A DNA stretch of 64,000 nt. Origin: an uncultured bacterium (lineage in GTDB: Bacteria > CSSED10-310 > CALFER01). The stretch's first letter is position 1; the number at the start of each line of letters is the position of its first letter. Positions 3,997 through 52,425 of the stretch are shown here, piece after piece. The DNA is taken from the NCBI GenBank assembly GCA_964472395.1, contig CAYYMM010000002.1, positions 48,150-112,149 of the forward strand, written 5' to 3'. Position numbers and translations under genes: made by a program. The notes beneath the pieces are model-generated. The model did no database searches, had not been told where the DNA came from, and saw nothing but the letters and a program-made list of their open reading frames with translations.

Positions 3997-3999
3997 GAC

Positions 4000-6057: not shown

Positions 6058-6330
6058 GACGAGAGTCCTTTCCTTGGGTCCGGACGCAGCATCCGGAGGT
6101 CGAATGAACCGGAGTGTAGAACAAATCGGCGCGTACGGGAAGAGTCCGTAGTGCGGATCAAGGGAGCATGAGCGACTGATCCTTTCCGGTTCCATTCCTG
6201 CCGGAAAATGGTCGGGTAAAAGTGATGGATGGTGAATCGATCGACTGTTGCAGTCTGGATGGAGTCTCACCGTTTTACTTTATGATTGGAGGATCGCGGG
6301 GAATGCAATTACGCTAGATCTCTGCCTCCT

Positions 6331-6364
6331 CGTTGTCGTTGTCGTTGTCGTAATCGTTTTCGAT
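6331..6364. repeat. Hexamer tandem repeat (CGTTGT)3 CGTAAT CGTTTT
   Basis: Read directly. Reverse complement of the array at 6539-6599. Confidence 0.9.
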
Positions 6365-6538
6365 GCCACCGTATGTCTCCGAAACATCGCGCATTTCATG
6401 ATTCACCTCACCCGGTCTCGTCAGCATCGAAACAAGTCGGATCACAATGCTGCGTCGCGAGTGATCTCAACGAAGCGAAAGATTGACAGTGAGCCGGGAG
6501 GAATCAAGCTGGTTGTGGGCAGATCGCATAGTTTCTTT

Positions 6539-6599
6539 CGATTACGATTACGATTACGACAACGACAACGATTGCGACAACGATCAGGGCAACGGCAAC
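6539..6599. repeat. Hexamer tandem repeat of CGATTA/CGACAA units
   Basis: cgatta x3, cgacaa x2, cgattg, cgacaa, cgatca, then degenerate units. Positions 6550-6571 are a perfect 22-bp inverted copy of 6336-6357. Confidence 0.9.
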
Positions 6600-6609
6600 C
6601 GTTCCGCTG

Positions 6610-6663
6610 GCGCTCCATCCTAGCCACGCGCCCGACCGCTAGCTCCAACCGCTTATTGGCCGG
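6610..6663 (-). mobile_element. Possible truncated integron attC-like site
   Basis: Minus strand GCCAATAAGCGGTTGGAGCTAGCGGTCGGGCGCGTGGCTAGGATGGAGCGCC contains the stop codon of the upstream small gene and resembles the left half of an attC. The complementary right arm and GTTRRRY are absent. Confidence 0.35.
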
Positions 6664-7057
6664 CCTCGTTCGCTCCCATGGAAGCACTCCGTCCGCAGAT
6701 CAGTGCGTGAACTGCCGCGAGACCGGGAAGAACGAGGAACGCAGCAGAGACCGCGAGCACCCTCCATGAAGGACGATCGGAGATACCATTTGCCACGACG
6801 ATCCCCACGAGTGTGGAGACTGGCGCGGCCAGGCAGAGAGCGGCACCGACACGGTGACCAGAAGGCAGCACATTCGCGACGAAGGCCGCCAGAGCCAGCA
6901 CGACCCCACCACCGAGAGCCGGGAACATGAGCGGTTCAAGTGCCCACCAAGCGCTGTCCCTTGGGGCGAATTCCGAAGGAGGCGCTCCGACGCCCAAGAC
7001 GACTGCCAGTATAAGAGCCAGGAGGCTCCCCAACACCACCTGAGATCGTTGCCTCAT
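6653..7057 (-). CDS. Small integral membrane hypothetical protein (about 4 TM segments)
   Basis: 134-aa ORF with alternating hydrophobic helices. Start at ATG 7057 preferred. Confidence 0.65.
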   Translation of the reverse strand: MRQRSQVVLGSLLALILAVVLGVGAPPSEFAPRDSAWWALEPLMFPALGGGVVLALAAFVANVLPSGHRVGAALCLAAPVSTLVGIVVANGISDRPSWRVLAVSAAFLVLPGLAAVHALICGRSASMGANEAGQ

Positions 7058-7476
7058 CCGGCTCCGTTCACAACTGACACCCACGATCTCTCCTCCGTCG
7101 TCCGAGTCTGTCGCACCTCACGGGGTCCGACCAACAATGTGATTCAACTGTTTTCTACTCATCTGCTGTATCAAATCATACCTTCACTGATTTGCAAGAA
7201 AAAACTGCGTATCCTTTGCCAGCTATCTTTCCAGTTTCGATCGAGAGAAATTTTATCAATATCCTGCGAAAGTTATCCCCGAAGACATCGCCAGCATCTT
7301 CTCACACCGCATTGCGTCACCACAGCAAAAACCGGCATCCTGACTGATTCAATCCCGGCCTTCGAATCCAAACACGATCACCCCCCTCTTTTGTTTTGAT
7401 TCGAAATCAGATAGATAATACCGGATTCGAGTCTCGGTTCGCGTCCCCACCCATCTTATTCCAGGAGTCGATTCTC

Positions 7477-8106
7477 ATGAAACTGAATGTCGTCCGATCA
7501 ATGTATGACTGGGTCCTGAAATGGGCGGAAAAACCCTCCGCCGGTTACGCCCTGTTCGTCCTCGCCTTCGCCGAAAGCAGCTTCTTCCCTATCCCGCCCG
7601 ATGTCCTCCTCATCCCCCTCGTCCTGGGATACCGGAAAAAATGGTTCCATCTCGCCCTGCTCACGACCATCGCATCCGCCCTGGGCGGAATCTTCGGCTA
7701 CGGTATCGGCCACTGGCTCTGGTGGAGCGGCCATGCCAGCCAGATGCAGTTCAGCGGACTGGCCGAGTTCTTTTTCCGCGTCATTCCCGGCTTCTCGAAG
7801 GAAGTCTTCGAACAGATGCGCGTGAAATACGAGCTGTACAACTTCTGGATCGTCTTCACCGCCGGTTTCACCCCGATCCCCTATAAACTGATCACCATCT
7901 CCGCCGGAGCATTCAACGTCGATTTCATCATCTTCTGCATCGCCTCGATCATCTCCCGCGGCGCCCGTTTCTTTATGCTCGCCGCCTTGATCCGCATCTT
8001 CGGCGAACCGATCCGCACATTCATCGACAAATACTTCAACCTCCTTGCGGTCCTCTTCACCATCCTGCTCATCGGCGGATTCATTGTCCTGAAACATTTC
8101 ATGTAA
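7477..8106 (+). CDS. YqaA/DedA (VTT-domain) family membrane protein
   Basis: LAFAESSFFPIPPDVLLIP and FTPIPYK motifs. Start at ATG 7477. Confidence 0.9.
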   Translation: MKLNVVRSMYDWVLKWAEKPSAGYALFVLAFAESSFFPIPPDVLLIPLVLGYRKKWFHLALLTTIASALGGIFGYGIGHWLWWSGHASQMQFSGLAEFFFRVIPGFSKEVFEQMRVKYELYNFWIVFTAGFTPIPYKLITISAGAFNVDFIIFCIASIISRGARFFMLAALIRIFGEPIRTFIDKYFNLLAVLFTILLIGGFIVLKHFM

Positions 8107-8118
8107 GGGAGTCACCCC

Positions 8119-9492
8119 ATGAAACCCTCCTGCCTGCTTATCACAACGCTGCTGCTGCTCGCCGGCCTCCCGCCGGGATCCGCAACGGTCGATCTGAATG
8201 TCAGCGAACATATCCTGCAAAACGGGATGCGCGTCCTGACAGTCGAACGCCATTCCGTCCCGGTAGTCTCGTTCGCGCTGTACTATCGCGTCGGCGCGAT
8301 CGACGATCCGCCGGGGAAAAAAGGCATGGCTCACTACTGCGAACACATGCTGTTCAAATCGACGAAAAATCTGGAAGGCGAATCCTACGCGAAACTCGTC
8401 GGAGCAGTTGCCGGAGGCCACAGCAACGCCAACACGACAACAGACCGCACCTGCTACCACGCGACGATCCCCCCGGATCGCCTGGAACTGATCATTCGTC
8501 TCGAAGCGGAACGCATGGCGAACCTCGAACCGACTCGCGAGGAAGCCGCAACGGAACTCGAAGTCGTCAAGGAAGAACTCAGACAGGGCTACATGGATGA
8601 CCCCATGGGACGGTTGCGACGACTGTTCCACGAAAATCTCTTTGCAATCCACCCCTACGGCGTGCTCACGATCGGCCTGCTGGACGATCTTAATACGATC
8701 TCATACGAAGACCTGATGGCTTTTTATCACCGATTCTATACTCCGGCCAACGCCATCGCGGTCATCGTCGGCGATTTCGAGACGACCGATGCGATCCCCC
8801 TGATGGAGCGCTTTTTCGGATCGATTCCAGCGGGGGAGCGGAACCCGAGACGCTATCCGGCGGAACCGCAGCAGACTCAGGAACGACGAACGGTTTTGGA
8901 ATTGCCTGTGCAACAGAGCGTCTACTACGCGGGTTACCAGGCAGTCTCCGGATCACACCCCGATGCGCTCGCCATCGAACTGCTGACGGTCGCCCTGTCA
9001 CGCGGCGGGTCAAGCCCGCTGGGACAACTCTCACAGGGACCCGACCCGGTCGCGATGTACGCCGCGGCCTACTTCCGGGGCCTTCTCGAACCGTACCCGA
9101 TCATCGTCACCGGAGCGCCTCTCCCGGGCGTGTCGACCGATATCCTGGAAACCCGCATCGACTCGGAACTCGAATCGATCGCCCGGAACGGATTGACGGA
9201 AGCGCAATTCCGGACGGCGCGCGCGCAACTGGAAGCAGCCGAAATCTATGAACTTCAGTCCTCTCTCGGCGTCGCCATCGGTCTGGGAGAAGCGGAGATG
9301 ACAGGCGCATGGCGGGATGCCATCACGCGTGCCGATCGACTCGCGACGGTGACCCGTGAGGATGTCTGCCGTGTCGCAAAAGAGTATCTCAGGCGCGACC
9401 GTCGCACCGTCGCCATCCTGAAACCTCAGCCGCCGGAATCGTCAGACATACCGGAATCCGGCGCATCGTCACCCGAGGGAGACGTCCGATGA
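8119..9492 (+). CDS. M16 (pitrilysin-like) zinc peptidase, catalytic subunit, exported
   Basis: Signal peptide. Inverted zinc motif AHYCEH, NANTTTDRTCY, E...V.EE. Confidence 0.92.
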   Translation: MKPSCLLITTLLLLAGLPPGSATVDLNVSEHILQNGMRVLTVERHSVPVVSFALYYRVGAIDDPPGKKGMAHYCEHMLFKSTKNLEGESYAKLVGAVAGGHSNANTTTDRTCYHATIPPDRLELIIRLEAERMANLEPTREEAATELEVVKEELRQGYMDDPMGRLRRLFHENLFAIHPYGVLTIGLLDDLNTISYEDLMAFYHRFYTPANAIAVIVGDFETTDAIPLMERFFGSIPAGERNPRRYPAEPQQTQERRTVLELPVQQSVYYAGYQAVSGSHPDALAIELLTVALSRGGSSPLGQLSQGPDPVAMYAAAYFRGLLEPYPIIVTGAPLPGVSTDILETRIDSELESIARNGLTEAQFRTARAQLEAAEIYELQSSLGVAIGLGEAEMTGAWRDAITRADRLATVTREDVCRVAKEYLRRDRRTVAILKPQPPESSDIPESGASSPEGDVR

Positions 9493-10922
9493 TCCGCCGA
9501 ACCGTCACGCTCACATTCATCACATTGCTCCTGTCGGCCTGCATCCACCGTCAACCCTCCCCGACCGACTCGATCAGGAACTATGTCGCAACGGCTTCCT
9601 GGGATCGGTCGGCGTCCTTTGATTTCCAGGAACCGGTTCAGATCACACTGTCGAACGGGTTGAGGGTATTTCTGATCGAACGCGAGGACATTCCGATGGT
9701 GTTTTTCCGGACGCAGGTCCGCGGAGGTTCCATCTATGATCCCCCCGGGAAGGAAGGCCTGGCCTATCTGACCGGCTGGGTCCTGACGGAAGGCGCCGAA
9801 GGAATCCCGGATGAAACGATCGACGCGATGATGGATTCTCGCGGAGCGATTCTGACCTCGCAGGCCTTCAGCGAATCCTGCATCGCCACGCTCACCTGCC
9901 TGAAGAAGGATCTCGGCGATGTCTTTCCGATGTACGCCGGTATCGTGTCGAAGCCCTCACTGGAAGAAACCAAGATCCGGGAATCGATCGGCTACCTGAA
10001 AGGTGATCTCCTCCGCCTGAAGAACGACCTGGGCGAACTCTGCTTCCGCCGCTTCCGCGCCGACGTTTTCGGCGACCACCCCTACTCGAAACCCTACAAG
10101 GGAACGATCGCCGGACTCGATTCCATTGACCGCCGGGATGTTGTCGCGTTTTACGACCGCTATTACCAGCCCTCGGATGCGGTCCTGATCGCAGTGGGGG
10201 CGATCACGGAAACGGAACTCAGAACGCTGTGCGAGAAACACCTGTCCAACTGGACATCGCGCACTGCGGACCCGCTCCCGGAGATCGCTCCGCCCGAACC
10301 CCTTCATGGGATCACCATCCGGATCATCGATCAGGAAGCCGTACAGGCCCAGATCGCACTGGGCCACATCGGCATCGATCGCCGCAATCCTGACCAGTTC
10401 GCCCTGGATGTGCTGAACGAAATTCTCGGCGGAGGCAGTCTCGCGTCGCGCCTGGGCAACGAAGTCCGGGTCAACCGCGGCCTGACATACGGGATCTACA
10501 GTTTTTTTGCCCGGCGTGAGTTTACAGGCGAATTCGCGGTGTCGACCTTCACCAAGGTCGAGTCGGTCGGGCAGGTGGTCGAGGTGATTCTGAACGAATT
10601 GAGAAAAATCCGAGATACAGCGGTTTCGGAGGAGGAACTTCGAGACGCGAAGCAGGGGCTGATCGGGCAGTTTCCGTTGCGTTTCGAGGAGTACGAGGGG
10701 CTGGCCGAGGAAATCAGCTATCTGTATTACAACAATCTGCCGATCGAATACGTCAAAGAGTATTCACAGCGCGTCGCGGCGATCTCCGCCGATGACCTGC
10801 AGCAGGCCGCCCGCACCTATATCGATCCCGACAACCTGACCATCACGGTGGTCGGCCCGGCGGATCGCATCGAACCTCAACTCCGATCGCTCGGCGTCGT
10901 CGAACGCGTCCCGGCGATCTGA
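9489..10922 (+). CDS. M16 peptidase non-catalytic subunit, probable lipoprotein
   Basis: LLSA-C lipobox. No HXXEH. LGGGSLASRL...R..RGLTY motif. ATGA overlap with the upstream gene. Confidence 0.88.
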   Translation: MIRRTVTLTFITLLLSACIHRQPSPTDSIRNYVATASWDRSASFDFQEPVQITLSNGLRVFLIEREDIPMVFFRTQVRGGSIYDPPGKEGLAYLTGWVLTEGAEGIPDETIDAMMDSRGAILTSQAFSESCIATLTCLKKDLGDVFPMYAGIVSKPSLEETKIRESIGYLKGDLLRLKNDLGELCFRRFRADVFGDHPYSKPYKGTIAGLDSIDRRDVVAFYDRYYQPSDAVLIAVGAITETELRTLCEKHLSNWTSRTADPLPEIAPPEPLHGITIRIIDQEAVQAQIALGHIGIDRRNPDQFALDVLNEILGGGSLASRLGNEVRVNRGLTYGIYSFFARREFTGEFAVSTFTKVESVGQVVEVILNELRKIRDTAVSEEELRDAKQGLIGQFPLRFEEYEGLAEEISYLYYNNLPIEYVKEYSQRVAAISADDLQQAARTYIDPDNLTITVVGPADRIEPQLRSLGVVERVPAI

Positions 10923-10940
10923 TCGGAAAGGACCCCTCCC

Positions 10941-12461
10941 ATGACGGACTTCCGGAAACCATCCGATGAAAAAGAACTCGTCGCCATGCTCGATTCGATC
11001 GACGCCCGCCTCGAAGAGATCGGCGCCCGTTCGAGTCTCGCGCACTTCAACCGCCTCACCGGTGCACCTCACGAAGATCTCGAAGCGCTGAATCAGGAAT
11101 CCGCCGCAATCATGCTCAATGCGGATTATCGCGACACGATCGAACACTGGCGCTCCCGATCACTCTCCCCGCGTCTCATGCGCAGACTCGACCTATTCCA
11201 TCGGGCATTCCGGAGCGCTCGGATCGACAACAATCCTGGCCTGTTTGCGCTGGCAAACCGGATTGAAGAAAAGATCATCCGCTTCCAGCCGGAACTCGAC
11301 GGTGTGAAGTTGTCCCGCAGCGATCTGGGCAAGGTGCTGGAAACCGAACCGGATCGAGCCCGGCGAGAGAGAGCCTATCGCGCCAACAAGGCACTCGGCG
11401 AACTGATCGAGCAAGATGTTCTTGAACTGTTCGCATATCGAAACGATCTGGCGAAAGAACTCGGTGCCGCCACCTACGTCGATCTCGGTCTGGAACTCGC
11501 TGACCTGAAGGAATCCGAACTCGATATGCTGTTCGACCAGGTCCGGCTCGCCACCGAGGATCTCTGGAATGACAGCCTGTCCGATATCGCGCATCAACTC
11601 GGCATCGCATCCCCCGCTCCTTGGGATTTCAGCTACTACATCCACTCGGTGCTCCCCTCCCCTCCGATCTCGAAATTCCCCAAAAGCGGCATCATCCCGA
11701 CATTCCGGAAATGGCTCGCGCGCTGCGGCGGCGATTTGGGCAAACTCCCGATCGAGGTCATCGAACAGGACATCCCGTATGGTGGTTTGTGCGTCCCGAT
11801 CCGAATGGGCAAGGACATCCGGATTCTGACAAATCCCCGCGATGGCCTGTCCTGGTACAATATTCTCTTCCACGAATTCGGCCACGGCATCCACGCCAGC
11901 CTGATCGATACGTCCTCACATCTCGTCGCGGGAGGCGATCCGTCCTTCTTCTGGGAGGGGATCGCAGGGGTATTCCAGTGGATCACCGACATGCCGGAAT
12001 TCCTGAAGGACGAGTTCGGGATGACGGATCGTGAGATCGCCGATGTGGTGCGGCAGAACCGGGTCCGGAACATCCTGGGTTACCGGAACATCGCCGTCGC
12101 CTGCCGTCTCGAATGGGCCATCTACCGCCGCACCCCCGATCCCCGGAAGTATCTGGAGAATCTGCTGCGTGACACCATTGGCATCGAGCCGCCGGAACGA
12201 CCCTCCTGGGCCGGCGATACCCTGTACACCACGCACCCGCTTTACCATCAGAATTACCTGCTGATGGATGTCATGGCGACCCAGACGATCGACGCGGTCC
12301 GGCGCTCCTTCGGCACGTATCCGGCCCCGGGGATGTTCGACTTCGTCGTCGATCATTATGTTCGAGACGGTGGATGGAAACCCTGGCGGGACAAGATTGC
12401 CGCGGCAACCGGCTCGCCGCTGACCGCTCAGGCGCTCGGCCACTACCTGACGGATCATTGA
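10941..12461 (+). CDS. Gluzincin metallopeptidase (M3/M2-like), cytoplasmic
   Basis: HEFGH zinc motif followed by FWEGIA third-ligand region. No signal peptide. Confidence 0.8.
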   Translation: MTDFRKPSDEKELVAMLDSIDARLEEIGARSSLAHFNRLTGAPHEDLEALNQESAAIMLNADYRDTIEHWRSRSLSPRLMRRLDLFHRAFRSARIDNNPGLFALANRIEEKIIRFQPELDGVKLSRSDLGKVLETEPDRARRERAYRANKALGELIEQDVLELFAYRNDLAKELGAATYVDLGLELADLKESELDMLFDQVRLATEDLWNDSLSDIAHQLGIASPAPWDFSYYIHSVLPSPPISKFPKSGIIPTFRKWLARCGGDLGKLPIEVIEQDIPYGGLCVPIRMGKDIRILTNPRDGLSWYNILFHEFGHGIHASLIDTSSHLVAGGDPSFFWEGIAGVFQWITDMPEFLKDEFGMTDREIADVVRQNRVRNILGYRNIAVACRLEWAIYRRTPDPRKYLENLLRDTIGIEPPERPSWAGDTLYTTHPLYHQNYLLMDVMATQTIDAVRRSFGTYPAPGMFDFVVDHYVRDGGWKPWRDKIAAATGSPLTAQALGHYLTDH

Positions 12462-12469
12462 TCGCATCG

Positions 12470-15349
12470 ATGAAGGCCGCGCGGATCCTGTCTGTTTGCC
12501 TGTCGGTTCTTCTGATCCCTGTTGTGTCGCATGCCTTCGGGGCAATCAACGTTCGCCTCCTGACCGAGCCGATCTCGGCGGCTGCTGGCATCGACGTCAC
12601 GCTCGAAACCGCCTTTCAGAAACCGATGCGGAATGCGACGGGGCAGACGGGGCAGGCCTGGTTCTTTGAGCTGCCGCCGGGCGATTACACCGTTTCGTTG
12701 ACTCCGGAAGAAGGCCGTCCGCGGCTCCGCATCCCGGTGTCGCTCGGCATCAACGCCGTCATCATCGTCGATGTGTTGTGCAGTGCTTGCGACGATGCCG
12801 ATCGGGTCTGCATCCGCCGTGAAAAACTGCCGGATTCGCCGGCGGTCGTGACGGCATCCGAAATAGACTGGCTGCCGGAAGGCTCGAACCTCACCGGCCT
12901 GTTCCGCTCGGTACCCTGGTCGTTCGGCGAGCAAACCCATCATGTGCTCGGGGGCTCCCCGAACGATCTCGGATTGATCATCGACGGCATGGACCTGAGC
13001 GATCCGGCGGGTCGGGTATGGATTCCGGGATACTCGGTGCAGTCGTTCGATCAGATGCTCCTTCACGGGGTGGCTCTGCCGATCGGCGACACCCCGGATC
13101 GCACGTCGATTCTCGAGATCACCCCTCGTCAGCCCGCGCAGCGTCTCCATCTGTTCGCCCGGTTCAATCAATCTCACGGAGAACTCCTCAACCTGCCAGG
13201 TTCCACACGCCTGATTCAGGGCGGAGATGGGATTGAGTCGGAAGCCGCGCTGGCCGGACCGGTCTGGTCGGATCGGATCTGGTTCATGGGAAGTTTCCGC
13301 GGTCTGGCCCGGGCGTTGCCCGACCCGGAACAGGTCTCGCCGCAGGACAACTGGAGGCAGCATGAATCGGCTGTCACCGGGAACGCCCTGGCGGGTCAGC
13401 TTCTGTTTCGCCTGTTCGATGAACAGCGCGTGAGGATCATGTATGGTCTCGAGGGATATCGGTATGATGACATCGTGCCGACGGACACCAGTTCGCCGGA
13501 TGCCGCGACGGATTTCCTTGTCGAGCGGCCTTTCGGTCTGATCCGCTGGTCCTGGCGCATTTCCCCCCGCTGGAGTCTCGGGGCAATGGCCGGACAGCTG
13601 CTCGACCGGGACGAATCGAGCCCCCGGAACCGGTCACGATCGGATCCGACTGATGCGTCATTTCGGGATATGCGGACCGATCGCTACTACAACAATGGAG
13701 CGAACTGGACAGAAGACGAGCGCAGGCGAATGATCGCGTCCTTCCGGATCCATTACTCCAACGATGACCTCGCGGGCGTCCACCGACTGACTCTCGGAGC
13801 AGGCTGGCAGCGGGACCGGCAGCGGATCGAAGAGACTGCCGCGGGAGGGGCCTGGTATGAGTTTACGGAAACGGACGCGCTTCGTGAGCGCTTGTCGGAC
13901 GAATCCGCAGTTCGCTTGAGAGGCGATTTCTTCCATTTTCATCTCGAAGACAAATGGTATCTTCTCGATCATGTGCTCCTGGAAGTCGGCGTCCAGTACA
14001 ACCGATCGATCTATTATGACAGTCGAGGGGATTCCGCATATCCAGGATGGGAATGGGGTGCATTCAAGGCCGGGGATTATCTGGACGATGACGGTGGGTA
14101 CAAGTGGACGAGTCAGATGAAGTTCGACACGATGTGGGCACCGAGAATCGGCTTCAAATGGGATATCTTCAAGGATAACTGCGCCGTGATCACGGCATCC
14201 TTCAGCCGATACTACGATCCGCTCGATCTGACGTTCCCCCGCGATGTCGAGGCGCGGGCGGGCGAACGCAGGATCCGTGAACGCTATACCGGTCCCGGGT
14301 GGACCGATGCGGACCAGAACGGCATTCCCGATGAACCGCACTTCTTCGCAAATGAAAACTGGAGTCCGGCATCGGGAGATGCTGAACCGGCGACCCTGCT
14401 CATCGATACCGAACTTGCGCCGCCGAGCACCGATGAAGTCGCCGTCGAATATCGTCATGACTGGAAAAACGGCATTCGGCTCTCGACCGGAATGATCGTC
14501 CGGGAAGCCAGTCAGATGATCGAGGATGTCGGGTTGTTCGGCGATGCGGACGGCAACATCGTCTGGACATATCGGGGGGCAGTTGACGCCGAGACCAACG
14601 AAATCAAAGCCGGAAAGCCGTATGATCCGTGCGTGGGCGATTATACCCGACGATACTCCTTCGTGACCAATCTGGAAGGTTCGCAGCGCCGATATTACGG
14701 GTTTCACATTCAGGCCGCCTACGAAGGCAGGAGGGTCAAGCTCCTGGGTGGGTATGTGCTGTCCAACACCATCGGAAAGGTGGTCGGAGTCGATCTCGAA
14801 ACCGGCGATCCAGCCTACCTGACATCGGCATTCGATTCGGTCACGTCATCCCGGAACCGCTGGGGAGATCTTCCCTGGTCGGCCCATCACCACCTGTCCG
14901 CCTCCGCATGGATCCTTGCGTTCGATCACCGCTGGTTCGAATGCCGTCTCGGGATCGCGGGTTACTGGAGGAGCGGATTTGCATCGACAGCATGGGAACC
15001 ACCTCCTCCGACATTCGATCCCGGGAACGCCTCCAACGATTTCGACGATCCCGACACATGGACCGGCACGCCGCCCGATGCTTCGAATTCCGAGATCTGG
15101 TATCCGGACGGTCGGGGCAATCGGAGGCTGGACCCGATCGTCAATGTCGATCTGTCCGTCCGCAACAGTTTTGAATTAGGTCCATCGAGCCGGCTGGGCC
15201 GACTGACTCTCCAGCTCGATGTGATGAATGCCACGAACAACAGGACGTATCGAGAAACCATCGAGGGTGGAGAATGGGCCTCCGACGAGGCTGATCGTCG
15301 CGAGGCATCCTCCCGCTGGTACCGCCTCGGCGTCAGCTATTCGTTCTGA
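12470..15349 (+). CDS. Divergent Oar-like TonB-dependent outer-membrane receptor
   Basis: Signal peptide from ATG 12470. C-terminal RLGVSYSF beta-signal. Shares many blocks with 29305-32319 and 32566-35547 (MKFD.M.APR.G..WD.F, IEDVGLF.D..GNIVWTY.G, GDLPWS..H). Confidence 0.8.
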   Translation: MKAARILSVCLSVLLIPVVSHAFGAINVRLLTEPISAAAGIDVTLETAFQKPMRNATGQTGQAWFFELPPGDYTVSLTPEEGRPRLRIPVSLGINAVIIVDVLCSACDDADRVCIRREKLPDSPAVVTASEIDWLPEGSNLTGLFRSVPWSFGEQTHHVLGGSPNDLGLIIDGMDLSDPAGRVWIPGYSVQSFDQMLLHGVALPIGDTPDRTSILEITPRQPAQRLHLFARFNQSHGELLNLPGSTRLIQGGDGIESEAALAGPVWSDRIWFMGSFRGLARALPDPEQVSPQDNWRQHESAVTGNALAGQLLFRLFDEQRVRIMYGLEGYRYDDIVPTDTSSPDAATDFLVERPFGLIRWSWRISPRWSLGAMAGQLLDRDESSPRNRSRSDPTDASFRDMRTDRYYNNGANWTEDERRRMIASFRIHYSNDDLAGVHRLTLGAGWQRDRQRIEETAAGGAWYEFTETDALRERLSDESAVRLRGDFFHFHLEDKWYLLDHVLLEVGVQYNRSIYYDSRGDSAYPGWEWGAFKAGDYLDDDGGYKWTSQMKFDTMWAPRIGFKWDIFKDNCAVITASFSRYYDPLDLTFPRDVEARAGERRIRERYTGPGWTDADQNGIPDEPHFFANENWSPASGDAEPATLLIDTELAPPSTDEVAVEYRHDWKNGIRLSTGMIVREASQMIEDVGLFGDADGNIVWTYRGAVDAETNEIKAGKPYDPCVGDYTRRYSFVTNLEGSQRRYYGFHIQAAYEGRRVKLLGGYVLSNTIGKVVGVDLETGDPAYLTSAFDSVTSSRNRWGDLPWSAHHHLSASAWILAFDHRWFECRLGIAGYWRSGFASTAWEPPPPTFDPGNASNDFDDPDTWTGTPPDASNSEIWYPDGRGNRRLDPIVNVDLSVRNSFELGPSSRLGRLTLQLDVMNATNNRTYRETIEGGEWASDEADRREASSRWYRLGVSYSF

Positions 15350-15470: not shown

Positions 15471-16763
15471 ATGCATAGTGCGCCGGTTCAGAGCATGCGG
15501 GAAGCACATACGCTTCTTGCCGAGATATCCTTTTCTCCGATCGAGTTGAAACGGGGATATGCTGGCCGATATCTCCGAATCGATCTCTCTCACAACGCGA
15601 TCGACATTCTCCCCGTAACCCAGCAGATGAAGGATCTGTGGATCGGGGGCAAAGGCTTCGACCTTTGGCTGACATTCAAGGAAATCTCTGCCGGAACAAA
15701 GTGGGACAGCCCCGAAAACCCGATCTGTTTTTCATCGGGCCCTCTGGGTGGGACCGCTGCGTTTCCGGGTTCAGGCAAAACACTGGTCACGGCCATCTCG
15801 CCGCAGACATTTTCGATGATGGATTGCAACGTCGGCGGATATTTCGGGCCTTTCCTGAAGTTTGCGGGGTTTGATGCTCTGGTTCTGATCGGGAAGGCGT
15901 CCGAGGAAACGATCTGTGTGATCGATTCCAAAAACGGATCGATCCGAATCGAGACCGCGCCGATGGAAAGCATCGATTCGCATGTCGTGGCGGAAGAATT
16001 GACGGAGATGTATGCCGATGATGAGATGGATAAGCGGAACATCGCGGTGGTGTCCGCGGGCCGGGCTGCCTCGCACGCGAGGATCGGCTGTCTGAACTTT
16101 TCGTTCTATGACTGGCGACGCCGGCTTCCCCGGTTCAAGCAGGCCGGGCGCGGCGGCATCGGCCGGGTTTTCCGCGATAAAAAACTGAAAGCGCTCGTGC
16201 TGAAAAGCCGCCGGATGCAACCGGAATGGACCATTGAAAAAGGCCCCATTCAATATCCCGTCATCGATTCCCCATGTGTCTCGTGTTCATCCGGAAATGA
16301 AACAACTGCCGTCCAGCGGATCGCAGCAGCATACGGATGCAATCCGGATTACGTGAACGAAATGCTCCAGGATATTCAGGACGAGATGCGGTACATCTCG
16401 AAAAGCGCGATCACCGAATTGGGGCGCCTGACCGGAATCCCCCGATCCTATCTGTTCCACATCGCGACATCGTCGGGGTACTTCAGTCTGACTCCGAAAG
16501 GGAAGCATGAGATCAAGGTTTGCATGGGGAATGCCTGCAAGGCCAGGGGATCCGAGAACGTGCTTGAGGCTTTCGAGCGCGAACTCGGTATTCGACGCGG
16601 GGAGACCACTTCCGATCTGCTGTTCAGCATCGAAGGCGTCCCGTGTCTCGGCTGCTGCAATCTCGCCCCCGCCGTCCGTATCGGGCACGATCTCCACGGA
16701 GGGGTCCAGCAGGCGGCTGTCGGCAAACTCCTCAAAAAATATCGCGATGGAGGTCAGGTATGA
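15471..16763 (+). CDS. Fusion of the aldehyde:ferredoxin oxidoreductase (AOR/WOR) N-terminal domain with a NuoE/HydC-like [2Fe-2S] domain
   Basis: GGKG, SGPLGG, TAISPQT, GGYFGPFLKFAGFDALV and AGRGGIG...KKLKALV (AOR_N), then CMGNAC...CLGCC (HydC/NuoE). GGAGG RBS at 15461. Confidence 0.9.
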   Translation: MHSAPVQSMREAHTLLAEISFSPIELKRGYAGRYLRIDLSHNAIDILPVTQQMKDLWIGGKGFDLWLTFKEISAGTKWDSPENPICFSSGPLGGTAAFPGSGKTLVTAISPQTFSMMDCNVGGYFGPFLKFAGFDALVLIGKASEETICVIDSKNGSIRIETAPMESIDSHVVAEELTEMYADDEMDKRNIAVVSAGRAASHARIGCLNFSFYDWRRRLPRFKQAGRGGIGRVFRDKKLKALVLKSRRMQPEWTIEKGPIQYPVIDSPCVSCSSGNETTAVQRIAAAYGCNPDYVNEMLQDIQDEMRYISKSAITELGRLTGIPRSYLFHIATSSGYFSLTPKGKHEIKVCMGNACKARGSENVLEAFERELGIRRGETTSDLLFSIEGVPCLGCCNLAPAVRIGHDLHGGVQQAAVGKLLKKYRDGGQV

Positions 16764-18610
16764 ATCAGCCCAATTCCAGCACGACGGAAACCAATCAGGT
16801 AATCAGCCAGCCCCGGGATTTTCGCGGAGAGTTACTGATCTGTTCGGGTTCGGGCTGCTCGGCCAATGCTTCGGACGAAATCCGCAAGGAACTCGTTCGC
16901 CTGCTATCTGAAAACAACCTCTCGAGCGCTTACAGGATCAGCATCACAGGCTGTCATGGATTCTGCGCCGCAGGGCCGATCATGATCGTTCAGCCGGAGG
17001 GGATCTTCTACCAGAAACTCACGATCAAAGTCCTCGATCGGATCGTCAGGGAGCACCTGGTCGAGGGAAAACCGGTGGAAACACTGCTGTTCAGGCATAC
17101 CGTCGGAACGATCCCGAAACGCGAGGATATTCCCTTCTTCAGCGGACAGGTGCTGATCTCACAGAGAAACAAAGGACTGATCGATCCGGAATCCATCGAT
17201 TCCTACATCGGCCGCGACGGATATCTCGCATTCACCCGGACACTCCGGAACCGACAGCCGGAGGAGGTGATCCAGTCCATCATCGATTCGGGATTACGAG
17301 GCCGCGGCGGCGGTGGATTCCCGACAGGACTCAAATGGCGTGCCTGTCGCGATGCGGCGGTTTCGTCGGGGCTCTCCCCCATCATTGTATGCAATGCGGA
17401 TCACGGCATGATGCAGCTCGAATCCGACCCGCATTCCGTCATCGAGGGCATGCTGATCGGCGCGTTCGCAATCGGTGCGTCCGAAGGCATCATCTACCTT
17501 CGGAACACCTACCATCTCGCGCGGAAACGCCTCGAAATCGCACTCGCACAGGCCACGGAAAAAGGGTTCCTGGGAACCCGGATCGCACAGAGTGGAATGT
17601 CGTTCACCATCCGGATCCACCGGGGCGCCGGAGCGTTTATCGGTGGCGAGTCCTCGTCGGTCATCGCGTCGATTTCGGGATCGATCCCCGAACCGCACGC
17701 CAAGACGATCCGAAATGCTGTGAAAGGTGTTCACGGGCGTCCGACCGTCGTGAACAACGTCGAGACATGGGCGACGGTGCCGGTGATCATGCACAAGGGA
17801 GCGGACTGGTTCGCGGCCATCGGCACGGGAATCCGGAAGGGTGAACCCCTGAGCGGATCGTCAGGAACAAAGGTGTTTTCGCTGATCGGAGACATCACGT
17901 ATCCCGGTCAGATCGAAATCCCGCTCGGGACATCGCTCGGTGATGTCATTACCCGTTTCGGCGGAGGCGTTCCAAGGCAGATTCCCCTGAAAGCCGTACA
18001 GATCGGCGGACCGACCGGCGGATACATCCCGACCTCCCGTCTCGACCTGAAACTCGATTTCGATTCGCTGAAGGCAGCCGGCACGATTCTCGGATCCGGC
18101 GAACTCATTGTCCTGAGTGAAAAGAAGTGTATCGCGGATTCTCTGAAAAACACGATCGAGTTTCTCGCCGACGAATCCTGCGGCCAGTGTACGCCCTGTC
18201 GCGAGGGTTTGAATGTTGCACGGAGTATTCTCCGCCGGATCACGGAAGGCAACGCCACGACGGATGATCTCGATGGTCTGCGCGAACTGGCTCTGACGAT
18301 GCGAGAGACGAGCATGTGTCAGTTCGGTGTGACGGCCGCCAATCCGATCCTCACCGCGCTCGACTCGTTCCTGCCCGAACTGCGTGCTCATATCGATCAG
18401 AAGAGATGCCCCGCGCGAGTCTGCAAGTCGCTGATCCGCTATGAAATCAATGCTGAGCGTTGTACGGGGTGCACGATGTGTGCGCGCGCCTGTCCGGTAT
18501 CGGTCATTTCGGGTGAACGGAAAAAACCCCACCGGATCGATTCAACGCGTTGCATTCGATGTGGAACCTGTTTTGAAGTGTGCAAGTTCGACGCAGTGGA
18601 GGTGAAATAG
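16760..18610 (+). CDS. NuoF/HydB(BfuB)-like subunit with degenerate FMN/NAD(H) site
   Basis: N-terminal CSGSGC...GCHGFC [2Fe-2S]. GLRGRGGGGFPTGLKW, ESCGQCTPCREG, H..QKRCPARVC and two C-terminal [4Fe-4S] motifs. ATGA overlap with the upstream gene. Confidence 0.9.
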   Translation: MNQPNSSTTETNQVISQPRDFRGELLICSGSGCSANASDEIRKELVRLLSENNLSSAYRISITGCHGFCAAGPIMIVQPEGIFYQKLTIKVLDRIVREHLVEGKPVETLLFRHTVGTIPKREDIPFFSGQVLISQRNKGLIDPESIDSYIGRDGYLAFTRTLRNRQPEEVIQSIIDSGLRGRGGGGFPTGLKWRACRDAAVSSGLSPIIVCNADHGMMQLESDPHSVIEGMLIGAFAIGASEGIIYLRNTYHLARKRLEIALAQATEKGFLGTRIAQSGMSFTIRIHRGAGAFIGGESSSVIASISGSIPEPHAKTIRNAVKGVHGRPTVVNNVETWATVPVIMHKGADWFAAIGTGIRKGEPLSGSSGTKVFSLIGDITYPGQIEIPLGTSLGDVITRFGGGVPRQIPLKAVQIGGPTGGYIPTSRLDLKLDFDSLKAAGTILGSGELIVLSEKKCIADSLKNTIEFLADESCGQCTPCREGLNVARSILRRITEGNATTDDLDGLRELALTMRETSMCQFGVTAANPILTALDSFLPELRAHIDQKRCPARVCKSLIRYEINAERCTGCTMCARACPVSVISGERKKPHRIDSTRCIRCGTCFEVCKFDAVEVK

Positions 18611-18612
18611 CC

Positions 18613-20601
18613 ATGGCCGAAAAAATCACGATCCGAATCAATGGAAACGCGATCAAAGCGACACGGGGAGCGAACCTGCTCAAGGTGCTCCAGGAGAACG
18701 GCTACGACATCCCCACCCTGTGCGCTCACAAGGATCTCTCACCGGGCGGGACCTGCAGGATGTGCCTGGTCGAACTGGAATCGAGCGGAGTTCGATCCCT
18801 GGTGACATCGTGCAACTGTACCGTTGATGCCGACATCGATGTTTTTACGGAATCCGAGCCGGTTATCCGGAACCGAAAACGGCTCGCCGAACTGTATCTC
18901 GGTCGTTTCCCGAACGTCCCCGTCATCCGGGAACTCGCCGCGCGGTGTGGCGTGGCTTCCTCACGTTTCAGTTCGCCGGTGACCGATCCGAATCCGCGTG
19001 CCTGCATCCTGTGCGGGCGCTGCGTCCGGGCCTGCAAGGAATTCGTGATCGAACGGATCCTCGATTTTGCAGGAAAAGGGATCAACCGGCATGTCGCGAT
19101 GCCCTTCAATGAAATGGACGAGCACTGCGTGGGTTGCTCATCGTGCGCTTACGTCTGTCCGACCGGCGCCATACGAATCGTCGACGATCTGAATCAGCCT
19201 GTGAATCCGCAACTCATCCGTGATCACGGGATGAAGGTGAACGCCGAGATGGCAACACTCGATAAGGCGCAGAACCGGATGCGGGAAGTGGGGACGGCCA
19301 ACATCGTCGAAGTCATGGACAAGTATGAACTGCTGCCTGTCATGAATTACCGATTCGGATCTCACCCCGATACCCCGAAGATCGACTCGAAAGTCCTGAA
19401 AAGCCGATACTTCACGCAGGAAATGGCCGATGGCTGCTGGCGGGGTTGCTCGATGGCCTGCGCTAAAGCCGTCGATAACTACACGCTTCGGACCGGACCT
19501 TATAAAGGCCAGAAGGTCTGCGTGGATGGTCCCGAATATGAGACATCCGGCGGAGGCGCCAACATGGGATGTTTCGATCCGGATTTCATCGTCGAATACA
19601 ATTTCTACTGCGATACGTATGGCATCGACACGATCAGTTTCGCCACGACGATGGGTTTCGTGATGGAGGCTTTCGAGGCGGGGCAGATCACGGAACACCA
19701 CACGGGTGGATTGAAACTCAATTTCGGAGCTGTCGACGATGCGCTCGAAGTCCTGCATCAGATGGCGCGAGGTAAGGGATTCGGCGTGGATGTCGGCCAG
19801 GGAATCCGGTGGCTCAAAGAGAAATGGGTGCGCGAGTACGGCGCGGACCGGCAGTTCCTGCAGGATATCGGCATGGAATGCAAAGGACTGGAGGTCTCCG
19901 AGTATCTACCGAAGGAATCACTGGCCCAGCAGGCCGGATACGGACTTGCGATCAAGGGACCGCAACACGATGAAGCCTGGCTCATCTTCATGGACATGGT
20001 CAACAACCAGATTCCCACATTTGAGGACAAGGCTGAAGCCCTGTACTACTTCCCCCTTTTCCGGACATGGTTCGGCCTCATGGGATTGTGCAAGATCATC
20101 TGGAACGATGTCGTTCCGGCCAACAACAAATTCGAAAAAGAAGCTGCCAAGATCCCCGATCATGTGAACAACTATTTCAAATACTGGGAAGGGATGACCG
20201 GAATTCCTCTGAATGAGGAAAGCATGCTGCTGCAATCCGCTCGCGTTTATAACCTGCAACGTGTCATGAGTGTTCTGTTGGGGTACGGGACTCGCGAGTA
20301 TGATCGAATGCCGTATCGCGGCATGGGCCCCGTCACACCTCCCGAGTATGAATGGCGCAAGGACTATTTCGACAAACAACTCAGGGATATTCTCGGAGTC
20401 GACCCCGAGGGCAAGTCGACGGAGGAGAAGATCCGGATATTGCGGGCACACCGTGAAGACCAGTATGAGAAAGTCACGGATGTCGTCTATCGGAGGCGCG
20501 GATGGACGAAGAACGGCGTTCCGAAATTGAGCCGCCTCAAAGAACTCGGAATCGATCTGCCGGAAATCGTGGCCATCGTCAAGGATCGACAGGACGACTG
20601 A
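18613..20601 (+). CDS. Fusion of a NuoG/HydA-like N-terminal Fe-S module with the AOR/WOR C-terminal (tungstopterin/[4Fe-4S]) domains
   Basis: PTLC...GTCRMC...TSC [2Fe-2S], CILCGRCVRAC and CVGCSSCAYVCP, then GCWRGCSMAC, GPEYE, CDTYGIDTIS, GPQHD, GLC and YRRRGW..NGVP. Confidence 0.9.
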   Translation: MAEKITIRINGNAIKATRGANLLKVLQENGYDIPTLCAHKDLSPGGTCRMCLVELESSGVRSLVTSCNCTVDADIDVFTESEPVIRNRKRLAELYLGRFPNVPVIRELAARCGVASSRFSSPVTDPNPRACILCGRCVRACKEFVIERILDFAGKGINRHVAMPFNEMDEHCVGCSSCAYVCPTGAIRIVDDLNQPVNPQLIRDHGMKVNAEMATLDKAQNRMREVGTANIVEVMDKYELLPVMNYRFGSHPDTPKIDSKVLKSRYFTQEMADGCWRGCSMACAKAVDNYTLRTGPYKGQKVCVDGPEYETSGGGANMGCFDPDFIVEYNFYCDTYGIDTISFATTMGFVMEAFEAGQITEHHTGGLKLNFGAVDDALEVLHQMARGKGFGVDVGQGIRWLKEKWVREYGADRQFLQDIGMECKGLEVSEYLPKESLAQQAGYGLAIKGPQHDEAWLIFMDMVNNQIPTFEDKAEALYYFPLFRTWFGLMGLCKIIWNDVVPANNKFEKEAAKIPDHVNNYFKYWEGMTGIPLNEESMLLQSARVYNLQRVMSVLLGYGTREYDRMPYRGMGPVTPPEYEWRKDYFDKQLRDILGVDPEGKSTEEKIRILRAHREDQYEKVTDVVYRRRGWTKNGVPKLSRLKELGIDLPEIVAIVKDRQDD

Positions 20602-20605
20602 GTGC

Positions 20606-21253
20606 ATGTCGGCGAACGTCGATATCTTTGAGCGAAACGTACCGGATCAGACGAACGCGTTGCGGGAAGCGACCGTCGGCATCGCGGGATGCGGGGGACT
20701 GGGATCCAACATCGCCGTATCGCTTGTTCGTGCCGGCATCGGACGCCTCATCCTGGTCGATTTCGACCGGGTCGAACCCTCGAATCTCAATCGCCAGCAC
20801 TTCTACCTGTCTGACATCGGGCAACTGAAAGTCGAGGCCTTGAGTCGGCATCTGACCGCTATCAATCCGGATGTCAGAATTCATTCGCATCCTGAACGGC
20901 TCGATGCGGAACGGACACCGATTGTGTTCCGGGAAGCGGATTTATTGATAGAGGCTTTCGATCGGGCCGAGAGCAAGAAGTGGTTGATCGAGGCCTGGTG
21001 CGCAGCCTATCCGGACCGACCGATCATCTGTGGAAACGGCTTGTCTGGCGCTGGTGACACCGAATCGCTTCGTGTACTGAAAATGGGTAACATCACCATG
21101 TGCGGTGATGGACGAACGGACATGGCAATCGGATTGAGCGCGCCGAGAGTGGCGATCGTTGCGGCCATGCAGGCAAACGAAGCCGTTGCGTACTTCTTGA
21201 AATGCCATGCGGCGTGCAGGGCTGCGTCCGAAAGGGAGCGGGAGGGTCGATGA
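20606..21253 (+). CDS. thiF: Sulfur carrier protein adenylyltransferase ThiF/MoeB-like
   Basis: GIAGCGGLGS, DFDRVEPSNLNRQ, EAFD motifs. Confidence 0.88.
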   Translation: MSANVDIFERNVPDQTNALREATVGIAGCGGLGSNIAVSLVRAGIGRLILVDFDRVEPSNLNRQHFYLSDIGQLKVEALSRHLTAINPDVRIHSHPERLDAERTPIVFREADLLIEAFDRAESKKWLIEAWCAAYPDRPIICGNGLSGAGDTESLRVLKMGNITMCGDGRTDMAIGLSAPRVAIVAAMQANEAVAYFLKCHAACRAASEREREGR

Positions 21254-21447
21254 TCCGAGTCAATGGAGAATTATTGGAGTGGACGGAGGGTATGACCGTT
21301 CAAGACATGTTGAATAAAAAAGGTTACGACTTTGCGTTGATCATCGTCACGATCAATGACCGGCTGATACCCGACGATGAGTATGAGGAAACCCAGATAC
21401 CGGATCAGGCCGATGTCAAAGCCCTGCACATTCACCACGGTGGTTGA
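21250..21447 (+). CDS. thiS: ThiS/MoaD-like ubiquitin-fold sulfur carrier
   Basis: 65 aa, I.VNG start, C-terminal GG. ATGA overlap with thiF. Confidence 0.88.
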   Translation: MIRVNGELLEWTEGMTVQDMLNKKGYDFALIIVTINDRLIPDDEYEETQIPDQADVKALHIHHGG

Positions 21448-21465: not shown

Positions 21466-22764
21466 TTAAACCCGTGGGATCCGGTTGATTTCCTCCAGCA
21501 GTTCAAATGGTGTGGCGAATCGTTCTTCCGGTCGTCGTCGCGTCAGTTTGTTGATCATCGTGCAGAACACGGGCGACAGATTCCGGTTGAGGGTGGGATC
21601 CAGAATCGCCTCGTCCCCGTCAAGTCTCGCGAGGATCGACGCGTACGGAGATTCACGTTCATAAGGGTTTGTGCCGGTCACCGCGTGATGGATGGTAAGC
21701 CCCAGCGAGTACAGGTCTGCTCGGATATCAATCGGGCGGGCATCCAGAACCTGTTCCGGCGCAAGATACCCCGGCGTACCGACGACATGGCCGATCGTCG
21801 TAGCCGTGCGATCGATCATGCGTCTCGATATCCCGAGATCCCCTAATTTGGCCTGCCATGAATCCGTCACGAAGATATTGCCAGGTTTGACATCCCGATG
21901 CAGCACCTGATGATCGTGCAAGTGATTCAGGGCCCGGGCGATGCATTCGATCAACGACATCGCCTCCGATTCCTTCAACCAGATCCCTGACCTTATGATG
22001 GCCTGCAGTGTTCTTCCAGGGACGTACTCCATGATCTGATAAATAAAATCGGGTGTGCGTTTTATTTCGAGAATCTGAACGAGACATGGGTGAGGAGGCA
22101 GTTCCAATCCAATGAGTGCGCCGCGGAAAAAACGCTGCAGATCGCGTACATTCCCCAGTTGAGACGGTTTGATGACTTTGACGGCGACCGATTCGTTCGT
22201 CGCCTTGTTCAAAGCTCGAAACACGGCGCCGGTGGCTCCCGATCCGATTTTTTCGACCATCGTGTACGCCGGTAGAAATGCATCCGCGGTTTTTCCGTCC
22301 GGAGTATCCGAAGACGTCATGGGATGCGTCGACTCGGAAGCCGTCGATTCCGCATGACGGATGTGCACTTTGATCTTCGCCCTGAGGATCGATTCGGGAA
22401 CCGGTTTATGCAGATAGTCATCCGCGCCGGAATCGTATGCCCTCAGGATCGAATTCTCACTGGAATCGCTCGAGTAGAAAAGCACCGGTACATCAAACTG
22501 ATGATGCAATTTAATCACTGCACAGGTTTCGTAACCGTCGTGACCTTTCAATTGATCGGAGATGATGATCAGGCTGGGTGATTCCCGTTGGGTTAGTCGG
22601 ACCAGGCGATAACTGTCGGGAGTGGTGATGACGTGATAACCCGAATTTCTGAGATATGAGGCGGTCAGGCTGAGATCTGCAAGATTGGAATCGCCGATGA
22701 GAATGACCGGTATCGACCGGGTCTTCGGATCTGTCTGATTATCGATCTGATGACGTTCCTCCAC
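21466..22764 (-). CDS. Receiver (REC)-domain Ser/Thr protein kinase
   Basis: N-terminal REC-like domain ending DYLHKP. Kinase motifs GSGATGAV, VAVK, HRDVKPGN, DLG, GTPGYLAPE. GTG start. Confidence 0.9.
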   Translation of the reverse strand: MEERHQIDNQTDPKTRSIPVILIGDSNLADLSLTASYLRNSGYHVITTPDSYRLVRLTQRESPSLIIISDQLKGHDGYETCAVIKLHHQFDVPVLFYSSDSSENSILRAYDSGADDYLHKPVPESILRAKIKVHIRHAESTASESTHPMTSSDTPDGKTADAFLPAYTMVEKIGSGATGAVFRALNKATNESVAVKVIKPSQLGNVRDLQRFFRGALIGLELPPHPCLVQILEIKRTPDFIYQIMEYVPGRTLQAIIRSGIWLKESEAMSLIECIARALNHLHDHQVLHRDVKPGNIFVTDSWQAKLGDLGISRRMIDRTATTIGHVVGTPGYLAPEQVLDARPIDIRADLYSLGLTIHHAVTGTNPYERESPYASILARLDGDEAILDPTLNRNLSPVFCTMINKLTRRRPEERFATPFELLEEINRIPRV

Positions 22765-43197: not shown

Positions 43198-43355
43198 TGC
43201 GTGTGGATGCACGGACACCTCCCCCTGAGTCTGTTCGGGATCAAGACAAAATCCACTCTACAGAGGGCGGGCAATGAATTCAATTTGAAAGCGCGGGATC
43301 ATCTCATGTATCGTGAGCTGTGAAACCTGCCTCATCCGATCCGACAGGAGCAGAC

Positions 43356-50811: not shown

Positions 50812-50817
50812 CCGGCG

Positions 50818-52388: not shown

Positions 52389-52425
52389 CTCTAGAGTTGC
52401 AGAAACCTCGCCGCAATTTTCGCGG

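Follow-up and report, generated by a model that had tools for sequence, protein, structure and literature searches.

A flavoprotein gene in a 64,000-nucleotide stretch of DNA from an uncultured bacterium (GTDB lineage Bacteria; CSSED10-310; CALFER01; GenBank assembly GCA_964472395.1, contig CAYYMM010000002.1, positions 48,150 to 112,149; the whole stretch is hereafter the window) has lost, in frame, seven residues of the loop that in its homologues carries contacts to nicotinamide adenine dinucleotide, NAD(H). The gene (16760–18610, plus strand) is identified from its sequence and context as the BfuB subunit of a three-gene split and fused aldehyde oxidoreductase (AOR), with tungsten as the predicted metal. 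The deletion is real and is fixed in the window clade, whose known extent is the window, the loci L001/L002 and L003 and, distantly, L030. Its main interest is that it belongs to a recurrent loss within a graded reductive series of the AOR-Bfu architecture. On balance, the window enzyme is best read as a NAD-blind, non-bifurcating aldehyde:ferredoxin oxidoreductase of the Bfu family, in which flavin mononucleotide (FMN) is probably kept as an internal relay.

The remodelled loop and the other pocket segments

Residues were compared in a 57-sequence BfuB alignment, with the solved chains 7t2r_B, 7q4v_B and 9mqx_B aligned by phmmer. The segments of window BfuB around the FMN/NAD(H) pocket are as follows.

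17390..17434 (+): remodelled loop C211–H225, CNADHGMMQLESDPH, with the 7-residue deletion (junction near 17407/17408)
17291..17338 (+): Gly-rich FMN-phosphate loop and NADH loop 1, residues 178–193, GLRGRGGGGFPTGLKW, intact, with invariant R180–P188, K192 and W193
17624..17659 (+): residues 289–300, GAGAFIGGESSS, with F293 and E297 kept and C295 replaced by Gly
17687..17710 (+): NADH loop 2, residues 310–317, PEPHAKTI, with R313H and Y316T derived and H318R just after it
17753..17767 (+): residues 332–336, NNVET, intact, with N332, N333, V334 and E335 invariant
18005..18019 (+): residues 416–420, GGPTG for the signature GGPSG (S419T)
18080..18103 (+): NADH loop 3, residues 441–448, GTILGSGE for GSMMGSGG (M443I, M444L, G448E)

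Where window BfuB has CNADHGMMQLESDPH, its homologues have CNADEGDPGAFMDRSxxExDPH. Against each of the three solved chains a gap of 6–7 residues opens after CNADHG, facing (E)GDPGAFMD, and the spacing from the invariant N212 to D223–P224 is 10 residues in window BfuB versus 17 in its relatives. The deletion takes out the AFM motif together with the acidic NADH-contacting residues, and the Glu that follows NAD is His215. N212 and D214 are kept, and the complete pocket loop, N-A-D-E-x-[ED]-P-G-x-[FY]-x-D-R, is not present. An earlier reading of the letters alone (the sequence-only reading) had reported an in-frame loss of about seven residues here, and this is borne out: translation of 17390–17722 gives CNADHGMMQLESDPH, GAGAFIGGESSS and PEPHAKTI exactly, and the gap is seen in the alignments.

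The literature describes the role of this segment in related enzymes. In Aquifex NuoF the loop residues E95 and D103 bridge to the nicotinamide via water and E97 contacts the ribose, and the peptide at E95 flips according to the redox state (PMC6560083). The review PMC8097209 gives no residue-level data on NuoF. The AFM motif is one of five signatures round the FMN/NAD pocket, the others being the Gly-rich loop, the Phe in GAGAF, GGPSG and the MGSGG loop; it is found in Bfu enzymes and not in non-bifurcating ones, an association also named in the sequence-only reading (PMC12018979). The Asp before the AFM loop, D214 in window BfuB, has been proposed to stabilise the flavosemiquinone (PMC12018979), and the MGSGG loop touches the nicotinamide in NfnB (PMC11829005). 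Window BfuB retains two of the five signatures, the Gly-rich loop and the GAGAF Phe (F293); AFM is deleted, GGPSG has become GGPTG and MMGSGG has become ILGSGE.

Within residues 289–318 the changes C295G, A300S, R313H, Y316T and H318R are derived in the window clade. All but one of the 29 full-loop sequences, and the three solved homologues, have C295; S419 is present in all 29, with Thr in its place in the window clade, L030, L028 and L031. C295, R313, M443 and G448 have each changed in six of the seven deletion lineages. The Gly-rich loop is identical in the window, L001 and L003, and K315 aligns with Arg-303 of Tsi NfnB, which forms a salt bridge to the NADH beta-phosphate. Two further segments counted as decayed by the sequence-only reading are ordinary: GES[ST], in which the second Glu is Ser, and EP[RH]AK are present in almost every one of the 116 nearest full-loop relatives, and GES[ST] and EPxAK are also found in WorB of Acetomicrobium mobile. 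They are therefore traits of the Wor-type BfuB subfamily rather than decay, and of the three motifs only the loop deletion stands.

The iron-sulfur (Fe-S) and zinc sites show no comparable change. Every ligand falls in an invariant column of the alignment, including those of the B2/Zn site (H544, C550, C555), and the claim that all Cys clusters are intact is upheld. The remaining sites are listed below.

16841..16966 (+): N-terminal thioredoxin-like [2Fe-2S] site (B5), ligands C28, C33, C65 and C69
18179..18319 (+): B1 [4Fe-4S] site (N3-type), ligands C474, C477, C480 and C520 (Pfam NADH_4Fe-4S, 6.9e-27)
18461..18583 (+): C-terminal 2x[4Fe-4S] sites (B3/B4, the ferredoxin branch), ligands C568/571/574/578 and C598/601/604/608 (Pfam Fer4)

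The change at N66 (TGCNGFC to TGCHGFC) was considered as a convergent signal and set aside, as His occupies this position in solved bifurcating HydB and in WorB.

Authenticity and recurrence of the deletion

Among 5.8 billion clustered proteins the close relatives of window BfuB form only two clusters, P0001 (94% identity) and P0002 (73%), and both carry CNADHGMMQLESDPH unchanged. Fully syntenic loci with CNADHGMMQLESDPH are present in independent assemblies, L003 from ENA (94% amino acid identity) and L001/L002 from Logan (73%). Contigs from public runs that cover the BfuB gene include one of 14 kb that is identical to it, one from another study that differs by 111 substitutions and is free of gaps across the gene, and one from a metatranscriptome run that is identical over 17245–17428 and crosses the deletion junction. 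The sequence-only reading had asked for confirmation with raw reads; these contigs from other runs confirm the deletion. Against L003, the ratio of non-synonymous to synonymous substitution rates (dN/dS) is 0.149 for the BfuB gene, 0.095 for its FMN domain and 0.065 for the neighbouring AFOR_N-NuoE gene, and dN is 0 in the C-terminal cluster domain. An assembly artefact, which the sequence-only reading had named as a possible refutation, or a decaying pseudogene is scarcely credible: the ENA and Logan assemblies and the further runs share the in-frame deletion without gaps, the frame stays open in loci 73–94% identical, dN/dS lies in the range 0.08–0.15, and the contig from the RNA run is identical.

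The predicted fold matches that of solved homologues. The AlphaFold2 model of BfuB has a mean confidence (pLDDT) of 88.5, and Foldseek gives template-modelling (TM) scores of 0.88–0.89 to NfnB, HydB and WorB and of 0.85–0.94 to solved members of the NuoF/51-kDa/HydB superfamily. The coil between strand and helix is shortened to 4 residues, versus 9 in P0019, a control from an identically organised full-loop locus. Low pLDDT at residues 291–300 and 311–320 was rejected as a sign of pocket decay, since P0019 is equally low there.

The loop was then read in about 40 split-AOR loci with a readable BfuB, and most of these 40-odd loci have the full loop; because similarity to queries of the deletion type decided which loci were sampled, the share of deletions among them is unrepresentative. 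The deletion is fixed in the window clade and is not general in split-AOR loci, the wider distribution that the sequence-only reading had suggested looking for. The altered loci are as follows.

4-residue deletion: L040
7-residue deletion: the window clade; L030 (44% identical, CNADHGAMHLESNPH)
8-residue deletion: L004/L006 and L005
11-residue deletion: L010, L028/L031 and L037
L020:3478-5820 and L048:4608-6956: substituted loop and broken Gly-rich loop; NuoE domain truncated and terminal cluster domains gone (C1, B5 and B3/B4 domains absent)
L011:4689-6887: FMN domain absent, only SLBB and the N3-type cluster left
L033:6174-8971: BfuB and BfuC both absent, with a free-standing AFOR_N of 269 amino acids

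A second sample comprised 80 metagenomic BfuB loci; its single deletion, in L090, which is grouped with L004/L006, again lies in an AOR context. The full loop is present in all 66 BfuB loci that have no AOR-C gene by a motif scan of the ±2.5 kb flanks. Deletions were found only in the split-AOR context.

Two of the related loci are of particular note. At only 44% identity to window BfuB, the BfuB of L030 (L030:5166-6977) shares with it both the 7-residue deletion and the His (CNADHGAMHLESNPH), and has GGQAS for GGESS. The BfuB and AOR-subunit trees disagree on its placement, and its deletion type is either ancient or a striking convergence. The locus L009 (L009:3528-6986) has a loop of full length that is substituted (CNADEGGPGAFSDR), and has LDNVET in place of NNVET. 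No other full-loop locus has a BfuB/AOR divergence ratio above 1.0, and L009 is possibly an early stage of the process of loop loss.

The number of origins was assessed on two trees. In the neighbour-joining tree of BfuB, built with the loop columns masked, L004 is sister to the full-loop L053 (100% bootstrap) and L005 falls within a full-loop clade (92.5%), while the long-branch deleted forms cluster together (96.5%). The AOR-fusion subunit tree spreads the deleted loci over six or seven positions. The clustering on the BfuB tree is likely to reflect long-branch or convergence attraction, and counting origins from that tree alone was abandoned for this reason. Because the two trees differ, a range of three to seven independent losses is given, with three as the minimum: the loop appears to have been lost at least three times, and possibly seven.

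The deletions are accompanied by changes elsewhere in the protein. Outside the loop, 244 columns are conserved in 27 or more of the 29 full-loop sequences; at 14 of these both the window clade and L004 have changed, versus 4.7 expected (p = 1e-5), a statistic to be read with the caution that columns differ in intrinsic rate and that the lineages are not fully independent. The ratio of BfuB to AOR-subunit divergence averages 1.29 in deleted loci versus 0.90 (p = 5.5e-6). All nine deleted loci are in the top ten for this ratio, and L009 is the sole full-loop locus there. No common new motif is seen among the deletion lineages, in which 4, 7, 8 or 11 residues are lost and G448 has become E, A, N or L.

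JGI metagenome contigs contained no match to a degenerate DNA pattern for CNADHG.M.LES.PH, and a protein-based scan of the same contigs gave no relative with more than 53% identity, so that the window clade is rare in that collection.

Fate of the NAD(H) site and of FMN

Loss of NAD(H) coupling would predict the two features described above, namely recurrent equivalent deletions and convergent changes in the other NAD-pocket loops. The evidence points to a protein in which the NAD(H) site, and not FMN, has been lost. The sequence-only reading had proposed a coordinated decay of the pocket. Changes at C295G, R313H, Y316T, S419T, M443I and G448E do accompany the deletion, yet decay is not supported: the proposal drew in part on the two subfamily-typical motifs, and the FMN domain itself is not decaying, with a dN/dS of ~0.10 and with the Gly-rich loop, N212/D214 and NNVET kept. 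Its further proposal of a non-bifurcating, NAD-independent enzyme agrees with the reading favoured here, and its implied loss of flavin is unsupported.

Retention of FMN is probable on two grounds. The phosphate loop, N212/D214 and NNVET are unchanged in the window clade. In addition, FMN is the sole bridge from B1 (6.4 Å) to C1 (14.6 Å) in Bfu enzymes (PMC12018979), and C1, B3 and B4 are strictly conserved in the window clade. An alternative is that FMN has gone together with NAD(H), leaving BfuB as a mere scaffold or Fe-S carrier from which electrons would exit via BfuA or B1, bypassing the flavin. Such a state would be in keeping with L011, which has no FMN domain, and with L033, which has no BfuBC, both of which still keep the split AOR, and with the loss of the otherwise conserved C295. 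It would, however, leave C1, B3 and B4 electrically isolated, and these clusters are lost in exactly those relatives in which the FMN-phosphate loop is broken (L020/L048). With the phosphate loop, N212/D214 and NNVET identical across the clade as well, loss of FMN seems improbable.

For the favoured NAD-blind enzyme we infer the following mechanism. The excision of seven residues, together with the pocket-loop substitutions, would disable the NAD(H) site of BfuB. NAD(H) binding would have been given up in a protein that kept another role, and the satellite residues would have been freed from constraint afterwards; the rest of BfuB, the ferredoxin-branch clusters above all, would stay conserved. 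Electrons would pass from the W-pterin through the AOR [4Fe-4S] cluster, the BfuA clusters, B1, FMN, C1 and B3/B4 to ferredoxin, or in the reverse direction. FMN would then be a buried one-electron relay in this path, and BfuB would serve as a conduit made of flavin and Fe-S clusters and as the docking module for ferredoxin. As a speculation, His215, Met218 and the new LES segment may form a cap over the face of the flavin. A direct transfer from aldehyde to ferredoxin is thermodynamically allowed, because the aldehyde/acid couple, at about −560 mV, can reduce ferredoxin directly (PMC9304861).

Several observations weigh against this reading. The remodelled loop is itself conserved, with H215, G216, M218 and L220-E221-S222 common to the window clade and L030, and such conservation is no less in keeping with a new function than with simple closure of the pocket. 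The adenine-side contacts F187, K192, E297 and K315 are kept. The loop contacts to NADH in NuoF are largely water-mediated, and binding might survive remodelling. To these are added the biased choice of split-AOR loci, the clustering of the long-branch deleted forms on the BfuB tree and the cautions attached to the convergence statistics.

Another alternative is a pocket that has been remodelled rather than closed. Besides FMN it would still bind a dinucleotide or some other partner for two-electron transfer (NADP(H), F420, a flavodoxin-type or other carrier), and bifurcation would continue with a different high-potential acceptor. The conservation of CNADHG.M.LES.PH from the window clade to L030 at 44% identity, the FMN-domain dN/dS of ~0.10, the retention of the Gly-rich loop, F187, K192, E297, K315 and D214, and the presence of all the low-potential-branch clusters are compatible with this. 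The independent deletion lineages have no new motif in common, however, differing in the length of the deletion and in the residue at 448, and the series runs on to total loss of the FMN domain and of BfuBC. The conserved operon also contains no gene for an extra carrier or an NAD(P)-binding subunit. A remodelled pocket of this kind is considered unlikely.

A related possibility, offered tentatively, is that the split-AOR Bfu enzymes form a natural series of repeated, independent inactivations of the NAD(H) site, and that the CNAD-H-G-x-M-x-LES loop is not a scar but a selected His/Met lid over the flavin. The lid would either turn a bifurcating flavobicluster into a linear, ferredoxin-only relay with a one-electron FMN or create a site for a new partner. 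The BfuBC core has been stated to be invariant in the Bfu classification (PMC9304861); such a series would contradict this, and would supply natural 'mutants' for the gating of bifurcation by NAD.

If the NAD-blind reading is correct, annotations and metabolic models that give these genes an NADH-linked or bifurcating role are in error for a sizeable minority of lineages. The warning that the label 'NADH dehydrogenase subunit F' misleads was well placed. The family would also provide natural controls for the proposal that NAD binding triggers the Bfu conformational cycle. Bifurcation of low-potential aldehyde electrons would be dispensable in some niches, here that of a peptide-degrading sludge bacterium.

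Gene cluster, known systems and genomic neighbourhood

The flavoprotein gene lies within a cluster of five genes on the same strand, 15471–21447 (+).

15471..16763 (+): AOR domain 1 (AFOR_N) fused to a NuoE/BfuC-like thioredoxin-type [2Fe-2S] domain (Pfam AFOR_N 1.8e-46, 2Fe-2S_thioredx 3e-36)
16760..18610 (+): BfuB/HydB/NuoF-type subunit, 616 amino acids (Pfam Complex1_51K, NADH_4Fe-4S, Fer4)
18613..20601 (+): BfuA-type N-terminal [2Fe-2S] and 2x[4Fe-4S] domains fused to AOR domains 2–3, with the tungstopterin and [4Fe-4S] site (Pfam Fer2_4, Fer4_7, AFOR_C 1.1e-86)
20606..21253 (+): ThiF/MoeB-like protein (Pfam ThiF 2e-38), kept downstream in L001, L004, L005 and L166
21250..21447 (+): ThiS/MoaD-like small sulfur-carrier protein (Pfam ThiS 1.3e-07), with conserved synteny

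The BfuB gene starts at ATG 16760, 7 nt 3' of GGAGG, and overlaps the stop of the preceding gene as ATGA. A longer open reading frame from GTG 16643 overlaps that gene and is an unlikely start. PDB matches by phmmer include HydB (7t2r_B, 7e-176) and WorB (9mqx_B, 2e-161), and the Pfam scores are above gathering for PF01512 (102 bits, cut-off 31.2) and PF10589 (93.6 bits). The BfuC- and BfuA-type neighbours are both present, each as a fusion with an AOR domain. The product of 15471..16763 has the C1 ligands CxxxxC...CLGCC and aligns end to end with the equivalent fusion from a full-loop locus; that of 18613..20601 is 68–85% identical across related loci. In the split AOR, with AFOR_N and AFOR_C on two polypeptides, the motif CWRGCSMAC and the distal Cys are conserved, which places the enzyme in the tungsten/molybdenum AOR (WOR) family as judged by its domains and [4Fe-4S] Cys motif. 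The cluster contains no WorS gene and no intact, separate WorL, the AOR being split, and so differs from the WorABCSL type. The ThiF/MoeB-like protein is probably a partner in maturation of the pterin cofactor; the Aor operon of Aromatoleum aromaticum also has ThiF/MoaD-like maturation genes nearby.

The AOR is split in the loci L004–L055 and L166 as well. In many relatives the AFOR_N-BfuC protein of the split AOR is further fused to BfuB, giving a protein of ~1065 amino acids. The BfuA-AOR fusion has at least 573 matches among GTDB species representatives in many phyla, including Krumholzibacteriota, Eisenbacteria, Cloacimonadota, Aminicenantes, Myxococcota, Bdellovibrionales and Thermoplasmatales, and the split architecture is widespread on this basis. 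The closest locus in a GTDB representative has 72% identity in the AOR subunit. In the Bfu classification, Type 1 enzymes, with the catalytic domain on BfuA, comprise FeFe, Nfn, Fdh and F420 only, and Wor is Type 2 (PMC9304861). The split-AOR-Bfu architecture is outside both this Type 1 and the WOR types of PMC12318220. A literature search found no description of a split AOR fused to BfuA and BfuC, nor of a BfuB that has no AFM/NAD loop; the searchable literature was limited, and neither result is proof of novelty. The split and fused architecture is thus apparently widespread yet undescribed.

The nearest described system is WorABCSL of A. mobile (9mqx), which likewise joins a tungsten AOR module to a BfuABC core. 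Its WorB, solved by cryo-EM with FMN and NAD(H) bound (PMC12318220), is 43% identical to window BfuB (TM 0.88) and belongs to the same subfamily (GESS, P(R)xKY(I/V)H) with the same Fe-S complement. WorB has the full CN(A/G)DEGDPGAFMDR loop, whereas that of window BfuB is deleted. WorABCSL also has a separate WorL and a poly-ferredoxin WorS nanowire in 3:1 stoichiometry, in contrast to the split AOR of the window.

The BfuB subunits of HydABC, NiFe-HydABCSL and NfnABC (7q4v, 7t2r, 9bp5, 9n5u) share with window BfuB the domain order, the fold (TM 0.86–0.89), the B1, B2/Zn, B3, B4 and B5 sites and adjoining BfuC-like and BfuA-like genes. They have all five pocket signatures including AFM, whereas window BfuB has no AFM and three others are altered. 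The FMN-domain, SLBB and N3-cluster core is also found in NuoF/Nqo1, FdsB, HoxF and Hyd1B of Syntrophomonas wolfei, which are non-bifurcating Bfu-like modules with the opposite loss: they keep NADH oxidation and have no ferredoxin branch (B3/B4 and others; PMC9304861, PMC11406978). The window enzyme is their mirror image, with the ferredoxin branch and its clusters kept and the NAD pocket excised. AorABC of A. aromaticum and the monomeric AOR of Pyrococcus furiosus share the tungsten AOR catalytic unit, but their AOR polypeptide is unsplit and they have no Bfu module. The net reaction of the P. furiosus enzyme, aldehyde to ferredoxin, is that predicted for the window enzyme.

Directly 3' of the AOR cluster is a fusion of a response-regulator receiver with a Ser/Thr protein kinase (21466–22764, minus strand), which is found at the corresponding position in L001; in L004 two Ser/Thr kinase genes lie upstream of the AOR cluster. 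The presence of the receiver-kinase near the AOR cluster may indicate a regulatory link. The regions 2047–15349 and 27133–47770 encode two DUF3857-transglutaminase proteins, two M16 peptidases, an M3 peptidase, a C1 papain-like peptidase, TldD/PmbA and an HtrA-type protease, as well as three large outer-membrane or TonB-dependent-receptor-like proteins. This neighbourhood suggests a peptide-degrading diderm and fits an amino-acid fermenter. In the Pyrococcus paradigm, AOR removes aldehydes derived from 2-keto acids. The window sequence is present in metagenome runs from activated sludge and wastewater.

An Rfam scan of the window gave no match, and two open reading frames (41698–43218, minus strand, 506 amino acids; 47963–49024, minus strand, 353 amino acids) had no Pfam match at E <= 1e-5. 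The stretch at ~49000–59000 (minus strand) has a GC content of 0.51–0.52 versus ~0.58–0.60, and carries the type I restriction-modification genes HsdR, HsdM and HsdS. Interspersed with these are a KilA-N protein, a YhcG/DUF1016 PDDEXK nuclease and an AAA_21/AbiEii-like ATPase, and the whole looks like a defence island.

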